From the UHGV virus genome UHGV-0349119: DNA of 16,624 nucleotides. The stretch is one strand, 5' to 3'. Under the pieces are notes generated by a model. It was not told where the DNA came from. It saw only the letters and a program-made list of their open reading frames with translations, and made no database searches. Both the position numbers and the translations under genes were made by a program. Source of the stretch: a virus. Of this stretch, positions 549 to 16,624 are shown in pieces (position 1 is the stretch's first letter; every line of letters starts with the position of its first letter).

Positions 549-1601
549 ATGAAACTAAAAAAAATGCTTGAAATGGATTTCATCAAGGAGTTTCAAGAGC
601 ACCTAGAAACTGACTTTGAGCATGAACTCTTACATGCCAGTCTTCGCAACTATTGTTCTCATGGTAATCCTCTGCGCTTCAACAACTTTGCATTTGCAAT
701 ACGTGAGCTAATAAATCATGTGCTGAAACGACTGGCACCAAATGACAGAGTTATGGCGTCTCCATGGTTCACTAAAAACAAAAATAACGCCACTGTTACC
801 CGTAAACAGCAAGCAAAATACATCGCCCAGAAGCATATACCCGATCAACTTCTTGATGATGTAGCTATCGAAAGACTAGATGATGGTATAGCATGGTTCA
901 ATAAAAACTATTCTTCTTTAAACGATTACACCCATATTAGCGAACATTCATTTGATAGTAACCCCAAACAGTTTTTTGAGAGTGCTAAACTAATAATAGA
1001 ACTGTGTAACATAATATTCGATACCTTCGATGAACTTGAGCGTGTTATTACCGAATCAATAATCGAGGAAGTACAGAATGAAGTTACTGACATCACAATG
1101 AATAATATCCCTGACGAACTGGATATATTATCTTCACAAACAACTGTTGATTGGTGCAATGTTGAATCCATTGAGTTGCTGAACCTTGACGAAAATTATA
1201 TTTATCTTTTGGTGCGCGGAATAGTTGAAATTACTAGGCAATACGGGCGTGGTGAGGATTACTTTGCACAGCAAGATTCTTATCCCTTCAAGTTTGCAGT
1301 CTCTATTCGCACTGATAATTTCAATTTAATAGCACCATTACTTAACACTGTAGTAGTGGATACAGGCTCATGGTATGACGATGGCGAAGGATCTGCTCAT
1401 TATGACACAATTTATACAACCTCCAGATTTTTGGAGATGATCTCACATATAAAAATTAAACCAAAAACAAAGAGAAGATTGTTTCCTGAGCTTAGTACAG
1501 TAGTAACACTAGGGATTCATGAAAGTGAAGGTATATCAGAATCGGTCGTCCCAGAAATATGTCATCTAAATCAAGGAAGCTTCAATTTAACTGAATTTTA
1601 G
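549..1601 (+). CDS. hypothetical acidic protein, 350 aa (candidate system gene A); no recognised domain
   Basis: Long ORF in AT-rich DNA, followed 16 nt later by the next ORF (operon-like). No Walker A motif. No clear Shine-Dalgarno at 549; in-frame ATGs at codons 5 and 9 are alternative starts. Confidence 0.6.
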   Translation: MKLKKMLEMDFIKEFQEHLETDFEHELLHASLRNYCSHGNPLRFNNFAFAIRELINHVLKRLAPNDRVMASPWFTKNKNNATVTRKQQAKYIAQKHIPDQLLDDVAIERLDDGIAWFNKNYSSLNDYTHISEHSFDSNPKQFFESAKLIIELCNIIFDTFDELERVITESIIEEVQNEVTDITMNNIPDELDILSSQTTVDWCNVESIELLNLDENYIYLLVRGIVEITRQYGRGEDYFAQQDSYPFKFAVSIRTDNFNLIAPLLNTVVVDTGSWYDDGEGSAHYDTIYTTSRFLEMISHIKIKPKTKRRLFPELSTVVTLGIHESEGISESVVPEICHLNQGSFNLTEF

Positions 1602-1617
1602 GATTATCTATGGAGAG

Positions 1618-3018
1618 ATGAAAATGTCTAATAAGATCTATAGCCTACAAAGAATGCCTACTGAAGCATTTAAGATATTTGCAATGTCATTGCCACATGG
1701 GCCTAATTATGGTAATGCGGAATTACTTTCCGCTTGGTCAAATGAAAAAGGGCTTGGATATGGTGCAGTCCTTCAATACAGCAAAAATTCATATGGCCTT
1801 GTTGTGCTCAGGCGACGGGAAGATTATGTGCTGGTACCTCTCGAGCATGAGATGTGTTTTACCGAGCAGGAGGCATTGGTGCATCTTGATAAGCACCTTT
1901 CAGCCGGAGGAGATTTATTACCGATTCCATCTGGGCAATCACGTAGAGCCCGACTGGATCATGTTGGTGAGCGGAATGTTTGTCAGGCATTTATACAATT
2001 ATCGTCCACGATAAAGTACCGAGGAGCATTTCATTTAATTGTCGAGCTCTATCTGGCATTACCAAAACCTGATGATAACTTCAGAACCGATCTCCAGACC
2101 CAAGGATTCAACTCTAGAATCTGGGAGCTATACCTTTTCGCATGTTTTAAAGAGCAGGGAATTAAAGTTTTTCAAGATTATCCATCTCCGGATTTTATGC
2201 TCATGAACGGTAATAACAAAGCATATGTTGAGGCGGTCACCGCGAATCCAACTGGTCCGGGCAGCCTAAAGTTGCCTCAAACACAATTCCCCCCCGGAGA
2301 TCGATTAGCTCGCACAGCAGGTGATATGGCAGCACGGTTCGCTAAGACCATCAGATCTAAACTCCAGAGAAAGTATGAAGAACTACCGCATGTTAAAGGA
2401 TTTCCATTTGCAATCGCTATAGCGGATTTTAGCGGTGGGGGCACTATGGTCTGGTCTCGCGAGTCACTTCCAACCTATTTGTATGGGCAAACCGCACATA
2501 CAGTCAAAACATCCAAAGGTATGAAGGCTGCTGCATTATCAATTGAAAAGCTTTTAGGCCATGTAAATATTCCGGCAGGACTATTTAACCACCCAGAGAT
2601 TGAAAATTTATCTGCTATCTTGTTTAGTAATGCTGGAACATTGCCAAAATTCCAGCGAATGGCAATCCAAGCTGAATTTTCCTCACCTATTGTGAAAGCC
2701 CGCAGGGTTGGGATTTTATTTGATAGGACTGAAGGGGCCTTGGAACCAATTGACTTCGATCTAGATATTCAATCGCCTGAATATATTAATCTTTGCGATG
2801 GCAAAGAATTTTGGTGTTTTGAACTTGAAGTATTTCATAACCCTAATGCTGCTTATCCAATGTCCCATGATTTCCTGCCGGGGGCAACACATTGGTTTGA
2901 ACACAATGGAGAGATCATCTGTGAGACCCAATGGAAAAACCAGGTACTTGCATCAGTAACCGAGTTTAGTATTGTTCCAGATGTCGCCGATAAACTCAAA
3001 GCCAAGGAAAAGCCGTGA
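1618..3018 (+). CDS. hypothetical protein, 466 aa (candidate system gene B); possible degenerate PD-(D/E)xK-like core
   Basis: GGAGAG at 1612-1617 is well spaced for the ATG at 1624 (the 1618 ATG is in frame). Residues E170, PD191-192 and E205 (WELYLFA...SPDFMLMNGNNKAYVEAVT) loosely resemble a nuclease core but lack the canonical Lys. No NTPase motif. Confidence 0.65.
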   Translation: MKMSNKIYSLQRMPTEAFKIFAMSLPHGPNYGNAELLSAWSNEKGLGYGAVLQYSKNSYGLVVLRRREDYVLVPLEHEMCFTEQEALVHLDKHLSAGGDLLPIPSGQSRRARLDHVGERNVCQAFIQLSSTIKYRGAFHLIVELYLALPKPDDNFRTDLQTQGFNSRIWELYLFACFKEQGIKVFQDYPSPDFMLMNGNNKAYVEAVTANPTGPGSLKLPQTQFPPGDRLARTAGDMAARFAKTIRSKLQRKYEELPHVKGFPFAIAIADFSGGGTMVWSRESLPTYLYGQTAHTVKTSKGMKAAALSIEKLLGHVNIPAGLFNHPEIENLSAILFSNAGTLPKFQRMAIQAEFSSPIVKARRVGILFDRTEGALEPIDFDLDIQSPEYINLCDGKEFWCFELEVFHNPNAAYPMSHDFLPGATHWFEHNGEIICETQWKNQVLASVTEFSIVPDVADKLKAKEKP

Positions 3019-3102
3019 TTGCTTGATGCAAGCATATTCTTGAAAGAAGAAAATTGACAAGATTTAAAACTAATAATGAAGGGGGGAATGTTACGAGGTT
3101 GT

Positions 3103-3124
3103 CAGGGCTGCAACAGCAGCCCTG
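3103..3124 (+). promoter_or_regulatory. stable hairpin (9-bp stem CAGGGCTGC/GCAGCCCTG, loop AACA) 85 nt after the ORF-B stop
   Basis: Exact reverse-complement arms seen directly. No immediate T-tract, so not a classic intrinsic terminator; could be an attenuator, RNA-stability element or protein-binding site. Confidence 0.35.
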
Positions 3125-3141
3125 TGTCAGAAGCGGACATT
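3122..3141 (+). repeat. 20-nt motif CTGTGTCAGAAGCGGACATT (copy 2 of 2), about 55 nt upstream of ORF 3195
   Basis: 18/20 identity to 310-329. Confidence 0.6.
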
Positions 3142-3194
3142 TTAAGCATTCGAGTGTAAGGTCTGTTTTTTAATTTGTAATTTTAGGAGGTAAC

Positions 3195-4148
3195 ATGCCA
3201 AAGAAAAGACGGTCTATTAGCCAGGTAAAAGAAGACATTTCAATCAGGGTTCTGCGGGAAAAACTACCTCGCGAATGGGTCGTACATAGCTATGGCGCTG
3301 ACTATGGTATTGATTGCGTTGTTGAATTATTTGATTTTATTGATGACAGTGAAAGTATTGCAGAAACCCTTGGTGAAAACTTCTTTGTACAACTAAAATC
3401 TTCAGATTGTATTGAATATTGTACACGTAAAGCCTATGCTCGTGGAAATGTAACCAAAGGAAAGTTAACAGAAGATAAAAGCGATTTTGTCGAAATCCCT
3501 GTCGCAAAATTCAAGTTAGATATATCAGACATTTTGACTGTTCAGTCTATAGGTATTGCAATTCCAGTATTATTGATACTAGTTGACACTAATACAGAAA
3601 AGGCATTTTTTATTTGCCTTAATGATTACATAGATAAAGTTCTCATACCAGAAGACCCGAATTATTCTAAAAAAGACTCAAAGACTATATATATACCTCT
3701 TGAAAATGAAATTCTGGATGATGAAGATGCGCTTGTTCCATTACGTGCATATGGTAAAAGATCAAAAATGTATGGCGCATTCTCACTTTTTAACTATCAA
3801 TTAAAAGAAATAAACCGATTACAAGGTAAAGCGGCCGTACAATTTCCTGTCTCTTTCGATGAAGCTATAGAGATGGTAAATAACTTTATTGTAATTGCTC
3901 TTAGACAAGATATATGGTCTGGTCATGAATTTTGGAAGCCGATGGTATCGAGCCAAAAGGAGTTGATCCAACTTCAAATAGATATTGATAAAGAGGTAAA
4001 ACCTGAACATTATGAACATTTTTTGAGTTACTGTTCCGAAGTGGTTTGGCATAAGTTAACAAATCTTTCAAATATGTATGAGGAGCTTGTTAGAGAATGG
4101 TTCATGCCAACCTTGCTAGCGACATTAACATCAGCCCGCCCTAAATAA
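3195..4148 (+). CDS. hypothetical protein, 317 aa, with N-terminal Mrr/DUF4365-like PD-(D/E)xK nuclease-fold motif (candidate system gene C)
   Basis: Strong RBS AGGAGG 4 nt before the ATG. N-terminal GADYGIDCVVEL...FFVQLK (D36/D40, E44, Q66-x-K68) matches the D...E...QxK pattern I recall for DUF4365 and Mrr-like restriction folds. Domain call is from memory. Confidence 0.7.
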   Translation: MPKKRRSISQVKEDISIRVLREKLPREWVVHSYGADYGIDCVVELFDFIDDSESIAETLGENFFVQLKSSDCIEYCTRKAYARGNVTKGKLTEDKSDFVEIPVAKFKLDISDILTVQSIGIAIPVLLILVDTNTEKAFFICLNDYIDKVLIPEDPNYSKKDSKTIYIPLENEILDDEDALVPLRAYGKRSKMYGAFSLFNYQLKEINRLQGKAAVQFPVSFDEAIEMVNNFIVIALRQDIWSGHEFWKPMVSSQKELIQLQIDIDKEVKPEHYEHFLSYCSEVVWHKLTNLSNMYEELVREWFMPTLLATLTSARPK

Positions 4149-4196
4149 TAATAGCAATGCTACGCAAAAGCATCCTAGCCCTAAATTCTTAAATAA

Positions 4197-4223
4197 GGGC
4201 TTCATATCAAATTGAAGCCTTTG
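4197..4223. terminator. candidate stem-loop between convergent genes (GGCTTCA, 8-nt loop, TGAAGCC, then TTTG)
   Basis: 7-bp exact inverted repeat at 4198-4204 and 4213-4219 with a short T-run; lies about 50 nt past the ORF-C stop. May serve both convergent transcripts. Confidence 0.3.
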
Positions 4224-4408
4224 TGAACAATAGAAACAACACTAAAAGACACCCCTATCACATTTAGTTGAATAGAAAAATAATAATGCGCCCACGACGA
4301 TACAATTACTAACGTCCGCTCCTCGCTCAAAGCAGACTGTCAGATTTGATTGCATTTTGCCTACGCAAACTGTCAGTTCGAGCCTGAGCTAATACAGCTA
4401 ACTGGATG

Positions 4409-4636
4409 TTAGCCTTTTTTAATTTTATTTTTAGATTGTTCAATGTGATGATTTAACACTTCTCTCTTTGCCTCTTCATAGGTTAGCTCTCCATTGATTA
4501 CCTTATTTTTTATTTCATTAAAAAATGAGGAGCCTTTGGGATCTTTACTTGATAAAAAAAGACTGGCTTCAGCTCTCCGAAAAGCTTCTTTCCTTGCTTC
4601 TATAGAAAATGAATTAGCAGGGTTATTTTTGTTCAT
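4409..4636 (-). CDS. small helical protein, 75 aa; loosely VbhA/YhfG-antitoxin-like but lacking the inhibitory Glu motif
   Basis: Overlaps the stop of the upstream membrane-protein gene by 14 nt (coupled). Segment RRAEASLFLSSKDP...VINGELTYEE resembles the pattern I recall for VbhA/YhfG small proteins; weak. Confidence 0.4.
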   Translation of the reverse strand: MNKNNPANSFSIEARKEAFRRAEASLFLSSKDPKGSSFFNEIKNKVINGELTYEEAKREVLNHHIEQSKNKIKKG

Positions 4637-5513
4637 AAGTTGAAGTGCCCTTATTATTTATATTCGGGATGTTTTTATCTACAAGAGTTAGTCTTAACTC
4701 CGAGAATTTATTTCCTGATATTTTATAACACTGATTTTCATTTTTTTCAATATAAAGAGATTTGCTTTCTGCGCTACCACATGTCGTAGATGTTCTTGCA
4801 TCAAGAAAAATAAACTTTTCTTGAAATCTTTCAATATATTTCATTGCTGTCATGCTAATAATAAAAAGAGCAACTGACACAGCAAAAAGGGATAAGCCTG
4901 ATACTAAACGATTAAAATTAAATTTCCTTTTAATAACTAATGAACTGGCTAGATTGACCATGTTATAGGGGACCATAATTATGAGTCCTATTAATATTAT
5001 TTTTTCAGGAAGATTGTTCACTTGTATATGATGTTGAGCCAAGTTTCCAATATATACTGAAATCATAGAGGATATTACTATTTTTGCTGGGGATACATCT
5101 CGCAAAAATATGTATATATAGACTGTAGTTGCACAAATCATTGCTCCTATTGGAAATGAGAGCATGAAAGCATAAGCTAATGTTGAGTAATTAAGATTTT
5201 CTGGGGCTATACCATAAGCTATGTCAAGCTTAAACTTTGCGATCCATAAGCATACTGAATATGTAAAGCCAGTTACGCCCCACTTAACCACTGTATTATT
5301 AAATACTTTATTTAATAAATCACGATATCCTATGTATACACTGGTTAATAAAGCTATAGATGATAGAAAAATTGGAGCGGCAATGTATATATTTTCTAGC
5401 CATAATGGGTTTTCTACAATCAAGTATCCAAAAGGTATTAAGTATATTATAGCCAATAGTTGAGGGTTGTTTAATTTGGATGATGCGTCAACCAAATTAT
5501 TTTTATATTCCAT
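4623..5513 (-). CDS. polytopic inner-membrane protein, 296 aa, unknown function
   Basis: Several long hydrophobic segments consistent with 7-8 TM helices and a polar C-terminal tail. AAGGA RBS overlaps the integrase stop; ATG at 5511-5513 is 9 nt after it (operon-like). Very AT-rich. Confidence 0.65.
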   Translation of the reverse strand: MEYKNNLVDASSKLNNPQLLAIIYLIPFGYLIVENPLWLENIYIAAPIFLSSIALLTSVYIGYRDLLNKVFNNTVVKWGVTGFTYSVCLWIAKFKLDIAYGIAPENLNYSTLAYAFMLSFPIGAMICATTVYIYIFLRDVSPAKIVISSMISVYIGNLAQHHIQVNNLPEKIILIGLIIMVPYNMVNLASSLVIKRKFNFNRLVSGLSLFAVSVALFIISMTAMKYIERFQEKFIFLDARTSTTCGSAESKSLYIEKNENQCYKISGNKFSELRLTLVDKNIPNINNKGTSTYEQK

Positions 5514-5522
5514 ATAACGTCC

Positions 5523-6596
5523 TTATTTCAACTTTAACGCCAAATCTTCAGCTTTTGGATGATAATACCGCATTAGCATTCTTGGATCTTTATGTCCTGT
5601 AATTTTGGTCAGTTCATGCATAGGGAAAATTTCAGCAAGTCGAGAAGTTGCTTCATGTCGAAGGTCATGAAATCTTAAATCTTTAAGGAATGATTCATCA
5701 CATAATGAGTTTGTTTTCTCGTATCGTTCTCTGGCTCGTTTTACAGCTCGGTCAAAAGCTCGGGTAATCGCGTCTGCACGCATATCAAAAACCTTATCAG
5801 CAGCTGGCTTAGAATGTTCCTTGAGACTGGACAGTATCGTGATGGCTTTCGTTGATAAAGGGACATCGCGGGCATTACCATTCTTAGTATCCGGCAGATG
5901 TGCAACTCGCCGATCAAGATCGATAAAGCGCCATCGAAGATCTGCGATTTCGCTACGGCGCATGGCTGTCTCTAACGCCAGAAGAATGATTGCTGGCAAT
6001 ACTAATGAATGTGTTGCGGCGATGATATGTTCGATCTCGTTGGCTATTTCCTTTCCTGACGTAACACCGGTTTTCTCAGAAACTACAGGCAGCGCTTCCA
6101 GGCGTCTGGTCCTGGAGTTCTTGGGTTGAGGTTTGCGAATGGCCTCTACGGGGTTCAGCAGGCTCTCCATGCCCCATTCTTTCCGCGAAACGTTGAATAC
6201 ATGAGAAAGTAAGGCCAAACGCCTTAAAACGGTTGCAGGGGCATAGATTTTCAACCATTCATCTCTCAGCTTGGCGACATCGGCACTCCTGATGCTGGCC
6301 ATATAGTTTTTCGCCAGCTGAGTGCCTTTTAGTATCCGCACCAATGATTGGTCTTGCACTGCCCCTTTTTTGTCGGGAACAATCTCTTTTTCATATCGCG
6401 TTAGGGCTTCATACAATGTCGTAGATTCCGCTTCGCTGCGGCTAAGCCAAACTCCTCTCGCCATTTCTGACTCGATCATTTTGGCCCAAGCTTCTGCTTC
6501 TACTTTGGTGTTAAAGGTTTTGGTTTGAGAGGGAAAACCTCGTTTACGGATTTGAGCTTCCCATTGGTAGTTACCACGTTTGCGTATAGTCGCCAT
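5523..6596 (-). CDS. tyrosine recombinase / phage-type integrase of the AT-rich island
   Basis: C-terminal HDLRHEATSRLAE...LMRYYH matches the catalytic R-H-R-Y box region. Preferred start is the ATG at 6594-6596 (MATIRKRGNYQWEAQ...) with an AGGAA RBS; the ORF track's start at 6626 is a TTG. Confidence 0.85.
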   Translation of the reverse strand: MATIRKRGNYQWEAQIRKRGFPSQTKTFNTKVEAEAWAKMIESEMARGVWLSRSEAESTTLYEALTRYEKEIVPDKKGAVQDQSLVRILKGTQLAKNYMASIRSADVAKLRDEWLKIYAPATVLRRLALLSHVFNVSRKEWGMESLLNPVEAIRKPQPKNSRTRRLEALPVVSEKTGVTSGKEIANEIEHIIAATHSLVLPAIILLALETAMRRSEIADLRWRFIDLDRRVAHLPDTKNGNARDVPLSTKAITILSSLKEHSKPAADKVFDMRADAITRAFDRAVKRARERYEKTNSLCDESFLKDLRFHDLRHEATSRLAEIFPMHELTKITGHKDPRMLMRYYHPKAEDLALKLK

Positions 6597-6684
6597 TTCT
6601 GTCTGATTCCTAACGAACTGTGGCAATATTGTGGCAAAAAATCCATTTAAATTCGATAGGTATTGATTTTACAAGATCAATTTA

Positions 6685-6733
6685 CGCATTCGTAATGCGA
6701 AGGTCGTAGGTTCGACTCCTATTATCGGCACCA
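6685..6733 (+). tRNA. thrW: 3' fragment (anticodon stem to CCA, about 49 nt) of tRNA-Thr(CGU); att core repeat, not an intact gene
   Basis: CGCATTCGTAATGCGAAGGTCGTAGGTTCGACTCCTATTATCGGCACCA carries the anticodon loop with CGT, the T-arm GGTTCGACTCC and the acceptor 3' end plus CCA. The preceding sequence (aagatcaattta) is not a tRNA 5' half. thrW is the att site of P22/SfV-type phages. Confidence 0.75.
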
Positions 6734-16320: not shown

Positions 16321-16624
16321 ATGCATCGTATAGACACGAAAACCGCGCAGAAGGATAAGTTCGGCGCGGGTAAGAACGGTTTTACCCGTGGTAACCCCCA
16401 GACCGGCACGCCTGCCACCGATCTGGATGATGACTACTTTGACATGTTGCAGGAAGAGCTTTGTGGCGTGGTGGAGGCATCCGGTGCCAGCCTGGAGAAG
16501 GGGCGGCATGACCAGCTGCTTACCGCGCTTCGTGCGCTGCTGTTAAGCCGCAAGAATCCGTTTGGCGATATCAAATCGGATGGCACCGTGAAAACGGCTC
16601 TCGAAAACCTTGGTTTGGGAGAAG
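16321..16624 (+). CDS. side tail fibre protein, N-terminal part (runs off the window end)
   Basis: ATG at 16321 with a GGAG RBS, not in the supplied ORF track because it has no stop in the window. [47 protein letters not shown]... is a conserved enterobacterial prophage tail-fibre N-terminus as I recall it. Confidence 0.75.

Follow-up and report, generated by a model that had tools for sequence, protein, structure and literature searches.

A variable seven-helix membrane protein gene and its small neighbour as a candidate accessory cassette in the integrase operon of a thrW-inserted island of Escherichia coli

The DNA analyzed here (UHGV virus genome UHGV-0349119; 16,624 nucleotides, hereafter the window) is Escherichia coli chromosomal sequence, 100% identical to strain TUM10008. 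Its minus strand carries a three-gene operon, in which a tyrosine integrase gene (int) is followed by a gene for an inner-membrane protein with seven predicted transmembrane (TM) helices, referred to here as the 7TM protein, and by a gene for a small protein. The last two genes (the membrane gene and the small gene) are the subject of this study. The operon lies at the end of a genomic island, predicted to be mobilizable, that is inserted at the tRNA gene thrW. The features of the locus are collected in Table 1.

Table 1. Features of the integrase operon and of its surroundings in the window
Feature	Position	Strand	Evidence
Island tyrosine integrase (int), 357 aa, operon gene 1	5523–6596 (PGAP start)	minus	Pfam Phage_integrase 3.7e-26; PGAP 'site-specific integrase'
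296-aa 7-TM inner-membrane protein (7TM-A allele)	4623–5513	minus	Open reading frame, translation, AlphaFold2 model, conservation
75-aa basic, hydrophilic small protein; PGAP 'antitoxin VbhA family'	4409–4636	minus	Open reading frame, translation, PGAP
int stop codon (TAA) and, overlapping it, the AAGGA ribosome-binding site of the membrane gene	5514–5525	minus	Direct sequence reading
Conserved inter-island sequence up to the cargo-insertion hotspot	4311–4408		Homology to other E. coli islands starts at ~4311–4316
Strain-specific hotspot cargo: pPIWI-associated nuclease, PD-T7-1-like 466-aa protein, DUF4365 protein	549–4148	plus	Pfam, PADLOC
Island attR: 49 nt that exactly repeat the 3' half of thrW, tRNA-Thr(CGU)	6685–6733	plus	Longest common substring with Lonsdalea thrW

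The longest open reading frame (ORF) of int spans 5523–6626 with a TTG start, and PGAP places the start at 6596. The minus strand at the junction of int and the membrane gene reads ...GAAATAAGGACGTTATATG. The ATG of the membrane gene follows the int stop codon after a 9-nt intergenic gap, with the AAGGA Shine-Dalgarno (SD) sequence 6 nt before it, and the ORF of the small protein starts 14 nt ahead of the stop codon of the 296-residue ORF. The GC content is 0.31 in the membrane gene and the small gene, compared to 0.46 in int. The three ORFs, their coordinates, the AT-richness and this geometry, all read directly from the sequence, are as described in an earlier sequence-only reading of the stretch. 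That reading also took the membrane gene to be translationally coupled to int and to the small gene; the geometry, an SD sequence over the int stop and a 14-nt overlap, suggests coupling rather than establishing it. A scan for promoters and terminators gave nothing beyond shuffled expectation upstream of int or between the three genes.

The spacing of the trio is identical in copies from Dickeya, Pectobacterium, Lonsdalea, Enterobacter and Pantoea and in many metagenome contigs, and the anatomy of the trio is conserved over at least six genera. An SD sequence that overlaps or abuts the int stop is retained even where the membrane-protein allele is 27% identical (arrangement seen in loci L004–L006, L013, L023 and L027). 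Compared with the ~85%-identical copies of Dickeya and Pectobacterium, the ratio of nonsynonymous to synonymous substitution rates (dN/dS) is 0.21–0.26 for the membrane gene, 0.29–0.36 for the small gene and 0.09–0.11 for int. The low ratios of the membrane gene and the small gene indicate that both are real genes under purifying selection.

The slot behind int is filled in different ways in islands that are otherwise closely related. The integrase itself is 89–98% identical over all island variants. In other islands of E. coli, Salmonella and Cronobacter (L013-type), a 309-residue 7TM homolog occupies the slot behind a 93%-identical int, and no small gene follows it. Between the window and these islands, the transfer proteins TrbL, TrbJ and TraJ are 73%, 80% and 77% identical, and the membrane protein just 27%. 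Pseudescherichia and E. coli also have a 315-residue allele, which shares 55% identity with the 309-residue allele and ~25% with the window protein and is followed by a 66-residue homolog of the small protein. Behind a 91%-identical int in GCA_041417135.1 (L025, 4599–5996), the slot holds an unrelated, AT-rich gene for a 465-residue protein that combines two N-terminal TM segments with a long coiled coil and has an acidic C-terminus. This protein has no Pfam or PADLOC match; a gene for a 62-residue homolog of the small protein starts 4 nt after it.

Breakpoints define the extent of the exchange. Among islands whose TrbL proteins are 96–97% identical and whose integrases are 91–94% identical, the slot contains the 7TM-A allele, a 7TM-B allele or the 465-residue protein, and the small proteins are 48–57% identical. 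DNA homology between the cassette types ends exactly at the int stop codon, which forms the left breakpoint. On the other side, DNA identity is 52–75% across the small gene and rises to 97–98% at ~60 nt downstream of it. Breakpoints at these two places indicate that the membrane gene and the small gene move together, exchanged as one unit between otherwise near-identical islands. The membrane component is the variable part, consisting of two 7TM clades ~25% identical to each other or of the unrelated 465-residue protein, while the small component is homologous and diverges with its partner. An alternative scheme, in which the small gene belongs to the backbone and the membrane gene alone is swapped, was dropped since the small gene diverges with the cassette among islands with near-identical TrbL. 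The pair described in the sequence-only reading is not obligate, as several 7TM homologs lack a small gene and the small gene is also found behind the 465-residue protein.

Homologs of the 7TM protein also occur elsewhere. In P2-like prophages, two alleles that share 35% identity are inserted, in opposite orientation, between gene V (spike) and gene S (tail completion). With flanking genes recognized by Pfam Phage_base_V/Phage_spike and Phage_tail_S, the homologs P0072 (Rahnella) and P0055 are placed in the P2 orf30 locus; the window gene is not in such a locus. In P2-like phages, horizontally acquired genes are known from three regions, namely orf30 and two others with the exclusion genes old/tin and fun (PMC3091744; PMC6823313). 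A homolog on a Pantoea plasmid adjoins a NotI-type restriction-modification system, the Advenella homolog lies beside insertion sequence (IS) fragments, and the Kingella homolog is near TrbM and prophage-type regulators. No homolog of the small protein was found near these non-island 7TM homologs (P2-like prophages, plasmid, Kingella and Advenella). Such solo homologs suggest that the 7TM protein can work alone and that it behaves as a mobile accessory gene. The accessory ('moron') character ascribed earlier to the membrane gene is borne out by the swapped cassette at a fixed slot and by the distant homologs in the orf30 moron locus of P2.

The 296-residue protein defines a small family. It has no Pfam, NCBIfam, PADLOC or PDB match, and PHROG 26661, whose function is not known, is the protein itself. 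A word-indexed search of 5.8 billion proteins returned relatives of at least 83% identity alone, all from Enterobacterales, and a scan of genome contigs likewise brought up close relatives alone. A full HMMER scan of 1.84 billion cluster representatives gave 18 matches, from Pantoea, Rahnella, Leclercia/E. coli/Salmonella/Cronobacter, Pseudescherichia, Providencia, Advenella and Kingella. Matches of TIGR03982 (E=0.029, in two of 12 members) and phrog_15965 (E=0.12) to TM7 and the C-terminal domain were treated as chance. Homology to a defined transporter or enzyme, named beforehand as the outcome that would speak against the sequence-only reading, was not found.

A structural model was obtained with AlphaFold2. 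An alignment of close homologs alone produced an unusable model, with a predicted local distance difference test (pLDDT) score of 39, while inclusion of distant homologs raised the score to 77.6, with a predicted template modeling (pTM) score of 0.73. In the latter model, seven long helices are seen; TM2 is followed by a short amphipathic helix, and residues from approximately 240 to 280 form a three-stranded β domain at the C-terminus. The positive-inside rule, applied to lysine and arginine counts over the family, gives a topology with the N-terminus inside and the C-terminus outside. Model and rule together agree with the earlier description of a polytopic membrane protein. Conservation is highest in TM3, in loop 3, predicted to be periplasmic (N97, Y100, I102 and Y109), in TM4 and in the C-terminal domain; W78, I102, Y109, D238, C245 and C262 are invariant. 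Of these conserved parts, TM3, loop 3 and the C-terminal domain with its cysteine pair lie on the side predicted to be periplasmic, and we infer that Cys245 and Cys262 fit a periplasmic, disulfide-bonded domain.

Two readings of the 7TM protein bear directly on these features. The first is an enzyme that modifies the cell surface (lipopolysaccharide or O-antigen), of the kind that Shigella and Salmonella phages encode beside int. As at the gtr and oac loci, an AT-rich gene for a polytopic membrane protein lies beside int and att, and a catalytic role could be played by the invariant Asp238 and a conserved Pro-Glu, which are found in periplasmic segments. However, searches of 12 members gave no Acyl_transf_3, GT-C, Wzy_C or GtrA match, save one at chance level, and the 7TM protein shows neither a hidden Markov model match nor a fold of an O-antigen modification enzyme (Oac/Acyl_transf_3, GtrC/GT-C or Wzy). 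With 296 residues and very short loops, it is also small for such enzymes, and gtrA/gtrB partner genes are lacking. Surface modification is highly improbable and is the least favored of the functions proposed in the sequence-only reading, because no glycosyltransferase (GT-C) or acyltransferase signal is present.

The second is an orphan immunity protein against a membrane-targeting bacteriocin, a contact-dependent inhibition toxin or a type VI secretion toxin, which would be retained on mobile elements and diversify with the toxin types. The small size and polytopic inner-membrane nature of the protein, its extreme allelic divergence at a fixed locus, its presence in several kinds of mobile elements and a conserved surface predicted to be periplasmic are all in keeping with such a role. 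However, no toxin gene is adjacent in any context examined, known immunity families are far more common than this one, and no similarity to known immunity proteins is found, which makes this reading quite improbable.

The integrase belongs to a genomic island, predicted to be mobilizable, rather than to a prophage. The attR copy lies 88 nt from the int start, and an intact thrW is located next to proA, 19.6 kb to the left of attR in the TUM10008 genome. The exact copy of the thrW 3' half, together with the intact gene, indicates that int forms one end of an integrative mobilizable island that is inserted in thrW and has IncP-type traJ/trbJ/trbL. The arrangement is that of tRNA-integrating genomic islands, in which an intact tRNA gene and a direct repeat of its 3' portion mark the two ends and an integrase gene adjoins one att site; Lonsdalea shows it as well. 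The earlier framing of the membrane gene as a phage moron adjacent to int needs correction in this respect, as the thrW/attR repeat and traJ-trbJ-trbL mark the integrase as an island gene, and the adjoining prophage has its own integrase (6748–7911). PGAP calls a 112-nt 'tRNA-Ser' at 6622–6733 in every genome carrying the island. ARAGORN finds no tRNA there, and the Rfam tRNA model scores 22.3 bits against a gathering score of 29; the call is an att-site chimera of the thrW 3' copy and island DNA and not a gene.

From thrW to attR, the island encodes a DUF4297 protein with a coiled-coil protein, an HNH protein with an AAA ATPase, HigA, TraJ, TrbJ, a 56-residue ORF at the position of trbK, TrbL and a remnant of a 70-residue protein gene, followed by the cargo present in the window (pPIWI-associated nuclease, PD-T7-1-like and DUF4365 proteins), the small gene, the membrane gene and int. 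IS1 copies flank trbL on both sides in TUM10008; a Pfam match for TrbL and a NikA-like TraJ are seen in relative islands. The ORF between trbJ and trbL (56–57 residues; L001 4622–4795, L025 7905–8078) is found where IncP plasmids have the entry-exclusion lipoprotein gene trbK, and has just chance-level lipoprotein-like Pfam matches. The left arm of the TUM10008 island (L029 17805–23218) contains the DUF4297 and coiled-coil pair, and the HNH endonuclease with the AAA ATPase. Judged by domain names alone, a Lamassu-like nature of the former pair is a guess. Most non-backbone genes of the TUM10008 island look like defence genes.

The remainder of the window (6748–16624) contains a second tyrosine integrase (6748–7911), followed by helix-turn-helix, yfdT/S/R-like, baseplate and tail genes, with a GC content of up to 0.55–0.60 in the structural genes. 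This second integrase starts a separate, degraded prophage, inserted in tandem in the duplicated thrW end. A minimal form of the island occurs in Lonsdalea (L006 4041–8475), where thrW is followed by ~2.1 kb without convincing ORFs and then by the small, 7TM and int genes and the att copy; the trio thus persists where the rest of the island has decayed. The Lonsdalea small gene has a dN/dS of ~0.9 and an E50Y substitution in its INGELTYEE motif, and may be in decay.

The company of IncP-type genes raises the possibility of a role in conjugation. The membrane protein would then keep out related islands or helper plasmids, by entry or surface exclusion, or act with the type IV secretion system (T4SS) of an IncP helper, and allelic variation would set specificity groups. 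Exclusion determinants, such as TraS of F and Eex of SXT, are typically polymorphic inner-membrane proteins. The membrane gene presumably shares a transcript with int, and the element also has traJ, trbJ, a trbK-position ORF and trbL; the conserved face of the protein is predicted to be periplasmic, and the Kingella homolog is near TrbM. However, the type of cassette is uncoupled from the T4SS alleles: TrbL is 96–97% identical over islands with 7TM-A, 7TM-B and the 465-residue protein, and there is therefore no co-variation with the putative T4SS target. The island also already has a candidate exclusion gene at the trbK position, and two of the alleles reside in P2-like prophages without conjugation genes. 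A conjugation-related function is, on balance, improbable.

The island is of a described type. StmGI_0323 of S. Typhimurium has the same thrW insertion site and the same gene order (HigA, 97-residue protein, TraJ, TrbJ, 57-residue protein, TrbL, 70-residue protein, hypothetical protein, putative membrane protein and recombinase), and it is likewise in tandem with a prophage, a P22-like phage, at a duplicated thrW end (PMC5575072); the E. coli island matches it in site and gene order. The last three of these genes, ORF12 (hypothetical), ORF13 (putative membrane protein) and ORF14 (recombinase), were merely listed, with neither function nor variation analyzed (PMC5575072). Compared to StmGI_0323, the E. 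coli island has extra cargo: the IS1 copies, the pPIWI nuclease, the PD-T7-1-like and DUF4365 proteins, and the DUF4297 and coiled-coil pair.

The IncP-dependent integrative mobilizable elements (PIMEs) of Pseudomonadota, whose accessory regions are reservoirs of immune systems, resemble the island in having an integrase with traJ, trbJ, trbK and trbL without a full T4SS, in their large accessory regions beside the transfer module and in their occurrence mostly in Enterobacteriaceae (bioRxiv 10.64898/2026.01.12.698999). By PGAP annotation, the island has the integrase, trbJ, trbL and traJ, and lacks a complete T4SS. The definition of PIMEs, however, also demands alpA and a replicase gene (repA), neither of which is annotated between thrW and attR in TUM10008. 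The sole AlpA-like candidate is a very weak one, a 93-residue island ORF with a chance-level HTH_17 match (13.5 bits). The island may be a reduced relative of the PIMEs. The preprint describing them does not mention the membrane protein or a VbhA-like gene (bioRxiv 10.64898/2026.01.12.698999).

The right breakpoint of the cassette coincides with the place where strain-specific cargo is inserted. This hotspot lies between the backbone 70-residue protein and trbL genes and the small gene, and contains different cargo or none in other strains; the gap between the small gene and the convergent 70-residue protein gene is ~50 nt in many copies and 3–8 kb in others. In the window, the pPIWI-associated nuclease matches pP_pnuc_1/2 and the PADLOC model Aga_Nuclease (1.4e-58), and the 466-residue protein matches PADLOC PD-T7-1 (3.8e-83) and has no Pfam domain. 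The cargo may represent a short-Argonaute-like defence locus, in which the PIWI partner has been replaced or is too diverged to be recognized. A general description of the site as a defence hotspot was dropped, as the cargo of other loci has no PADLOC matches and is of mixed Pfam content. The sequence of ~80–90 nt at 4311–4402, which contains two CTGACAGT repeats, recurs with 81–98% identity in unannotated intergenic plasmid DNA of Klebsiella, Salmonella, Yersinia, Serratia and Citrobacter. An Rfam match to snoU43 at 4127–4205 was attributed to chance.

The small protein has two invariant motifs, AEASLxLS and INGxLTYEEA. Its PGAP family name refers to VbhA, which, with FicA (YhfG), represents the class I Fic antitoxins (PF18495; PDB 3SHG and 3ZC7). 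The score for the Pfam VbhA model, 12.8 bits (E=0.12, residues 36–61 alone), falls short of the 25.9 cutoff, and three of 12 members match the model at E<1. There is no NCBIfam match, PDB sequence searches did not find VbhA, and an hhalign comparison of the small-protein family with the VbhA sequence, verified against PDB 3SHG and 3ZC7, gave a below-threshold E=0.077. The two proteins are similar in size and their alignment is colinear, AEASLFLSGKDP being matched to ALASQRLEGLEP and VINGELTYEE to VVVGELETSD, with shared AxAS..L.G..P and V..GEL motifs and 30% identity over 43 columns. By this alignment, the most conserved part of the small protein corresponds to the Fic-inhibiting helix of VbhA. 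The SHOCT-like domain model (PF22746) gave a recurrent match in 11 of the 12 members at 19.7–20.6 bits, below its cutoff of 27, over ~20 residues of the second motif (NEIKNKVINGELTYEEAKRE), which is a short, low-information match. An excisionase was also considered for the small protein and is unsupported, with no HTH_17 or Xis signal.

The small protein differs from VbhA and FicA at the residue on which their function depends. The glutamate of the [S/T]xxxE[G/N] motif, which blocks ATP binding in the Fic partner, is replaced by serine in the small protein. This serine is found at the position aligned to the inhibitory Glu24 of VbhA in all 12 members, within an aligned motif S25-L-F-L-S29-S/G, as the sequence-only reading had pointed out. 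Moreover, the gene upstream encodes a 7TM membrane protein without a Pfam domain instead of a Fic toxin, and no Fic gene is annotated in the 19.6-kb island or in other island variants. The loose resemblance to VbhA/YhfG noted earlier is thus seen in the colinear motifs, but it falls below all thresholds applied, and a Fic partner is lacking. The name 'antitoxin VbhA family protein' appears to be an over-annotation for this subfamily.

The arrangement of the two genes suggests, as the main rival explanation, a toxin–antitoxin (TA) or abortive-infection module, in which the membrane protein would be a latent membrane-damaging toxin and the small VbhA-like protein its antitoxin. Loss of the antitoxin, or its inactivation, on phage infection or loss of the island would kill or arrest the cell, which would stabilize the island. 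The gene order, with overlaps or short gaps of 4–14 nt, is typical of TA operons with the toxin upstream, and the PGAP label refers to an antitoxin-fold family. Islands whose backbone is 96–98% identical differ in their small proteins according to the type of membrane partner, as would be expected of cognate pairs, and the trio is retained in decayed islands. Antitoxin families are also shuffled among unrelated toxins, which fits the 465-residue alternative partner. However, the 309-residue allele, which is common in E. coli, Salmonella and Cronobacter, has no small gene behind it, and all non-island 7TM homologs lack one; the 7TM protein is therefore not intrinsically lethal. In addition, conservation is concentrated on the predicted periplasmic face instead of the cytoplasmic loops, where a cytosolic antitoxin would bind, and the small protein does not qualify as a VbhA member. 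We regard a TA module as unlikely.

We tentatively favor a different reading, which we hold to be possible rather than probable, in which the membrane gene and the small gene form an envelope-acting exclusion or defence accessory cassette in the int operon of the thrW-integrated, IncP-type island. The 7TM protein would act at the cell envelope and shield the host and the element from incoming DNA. Its most likely mode would be a block of phage genome entry of the superinfection-exclusion (Sie) type and, less likely, that of an infection-triggered membrane effector. We prefer the former on three grounds: a conserved surface predicted to be periplasmic, the lack of a cytoplasmic domain, and the solo occurrence of the protein in prophages, where it would work alone. 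The small cytosolic protein could be a cognate modulator or stabilizer; its likeness to the VbhA/FicA fold would reflect either descent or convergence, with loss of the glutamate that inhibits Fic. A location behind int would provide expression without a separate promoter.

Genes of similar behavior are known from phages. Like P22 SieA, T4 Imm and HK97 gp15, the membrane gene is a variable, AT-rich, non-essential accessory gene of a mobile element, and an inner-membrane location fits Sie proteins. The 7TM homologs in orf30 further resemble the P2 morons old, tin and fun(Z), since orf30 is a locus of the same kind as those of old/tin and fun. The rest of the TUM10008 island, which consists mostly of defence-like cargo (DUF4297 with coiled coil, HNH with AAA ATPase, the pPIWI nuclease and the PD-T7-1-like protein), was also counted in favor of an exclusion cassette. 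In contrast, no sequence or fold similarity between the 7TM protein and Sie proteins or P2 exclusion morons was detected. Classical Sie proteins are also smaller than the 7TM protein.

Several further observations weigh against an exclusion or defence role. PADLOC-DB 2.0 gave no match for the window 7TM protein or small protein, for seven distant 7TM homologs or for variants of the small protein, and no homology was found that would link either protein to phage exclusion. Fold searches were uninformative and lent no support. A tblastn search of 50,697 phage records with the window protein and a P2-prophage homolog returned no match, so that no homology to the orf30 of P2 itself is detectable. 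At other loci, the cargo of the hotspot has mixed Pfam content, with DUF2254 and transporters of the BCCT and MFS types among it. If co-transcribed with int, the genes could be expressed mainly at excision or integration instead of in the resting state, which would better fit a function in element transfer. The small protein is absent from many 7TM loci and present beside the unrelated 465-residue protein, and the role given to it here is one that we purely infer.

A broader scheme can be drawn from the exchange of cassettes, in which a degenerate protein of the FicA/VbhA fold, with Glu changed to Ser and an invariant AEASLxLS helix, would have become the constant cytosolic subunit of a two-component membrane defence or addiction cassette not recognized before. 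Its membrane effectors (7TM clade A, 7TM clade B or the 465-residue protein) would be interchangeable, and the cassette, tied to an island integrase, would pass as a whole from island to island. We consider this scheme doubtful. The genes have been listed before as hypotheticals (StmGI_0323), and the type of island has been described. The cassette behavior, the definition of the 7TM family and the misannotation as VbhA appear to be undescribed in the literature searched.

Two corrections of annotation follow from the analysis whatever the function: 'antitoxin VbhA family protein' is over-annotated, and the 112-nt 'tRNA-Ser' is to be regarded as an att-site chimera. The 7TM family has no Pfam, NCBIfam or PADLOC model and comprises ~18 sequence clusters worldwide. 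If phage or plasmid DNA is indeed blocked at the envelope, this would be a new family on the short list of single-gene exclusion determinants. The small protein would then represent a Fic-antitoxin-like fold working outside Fic biology, and the integrase operon of IncP-hitching islands would itself be a slot for exchangeable protective genes.

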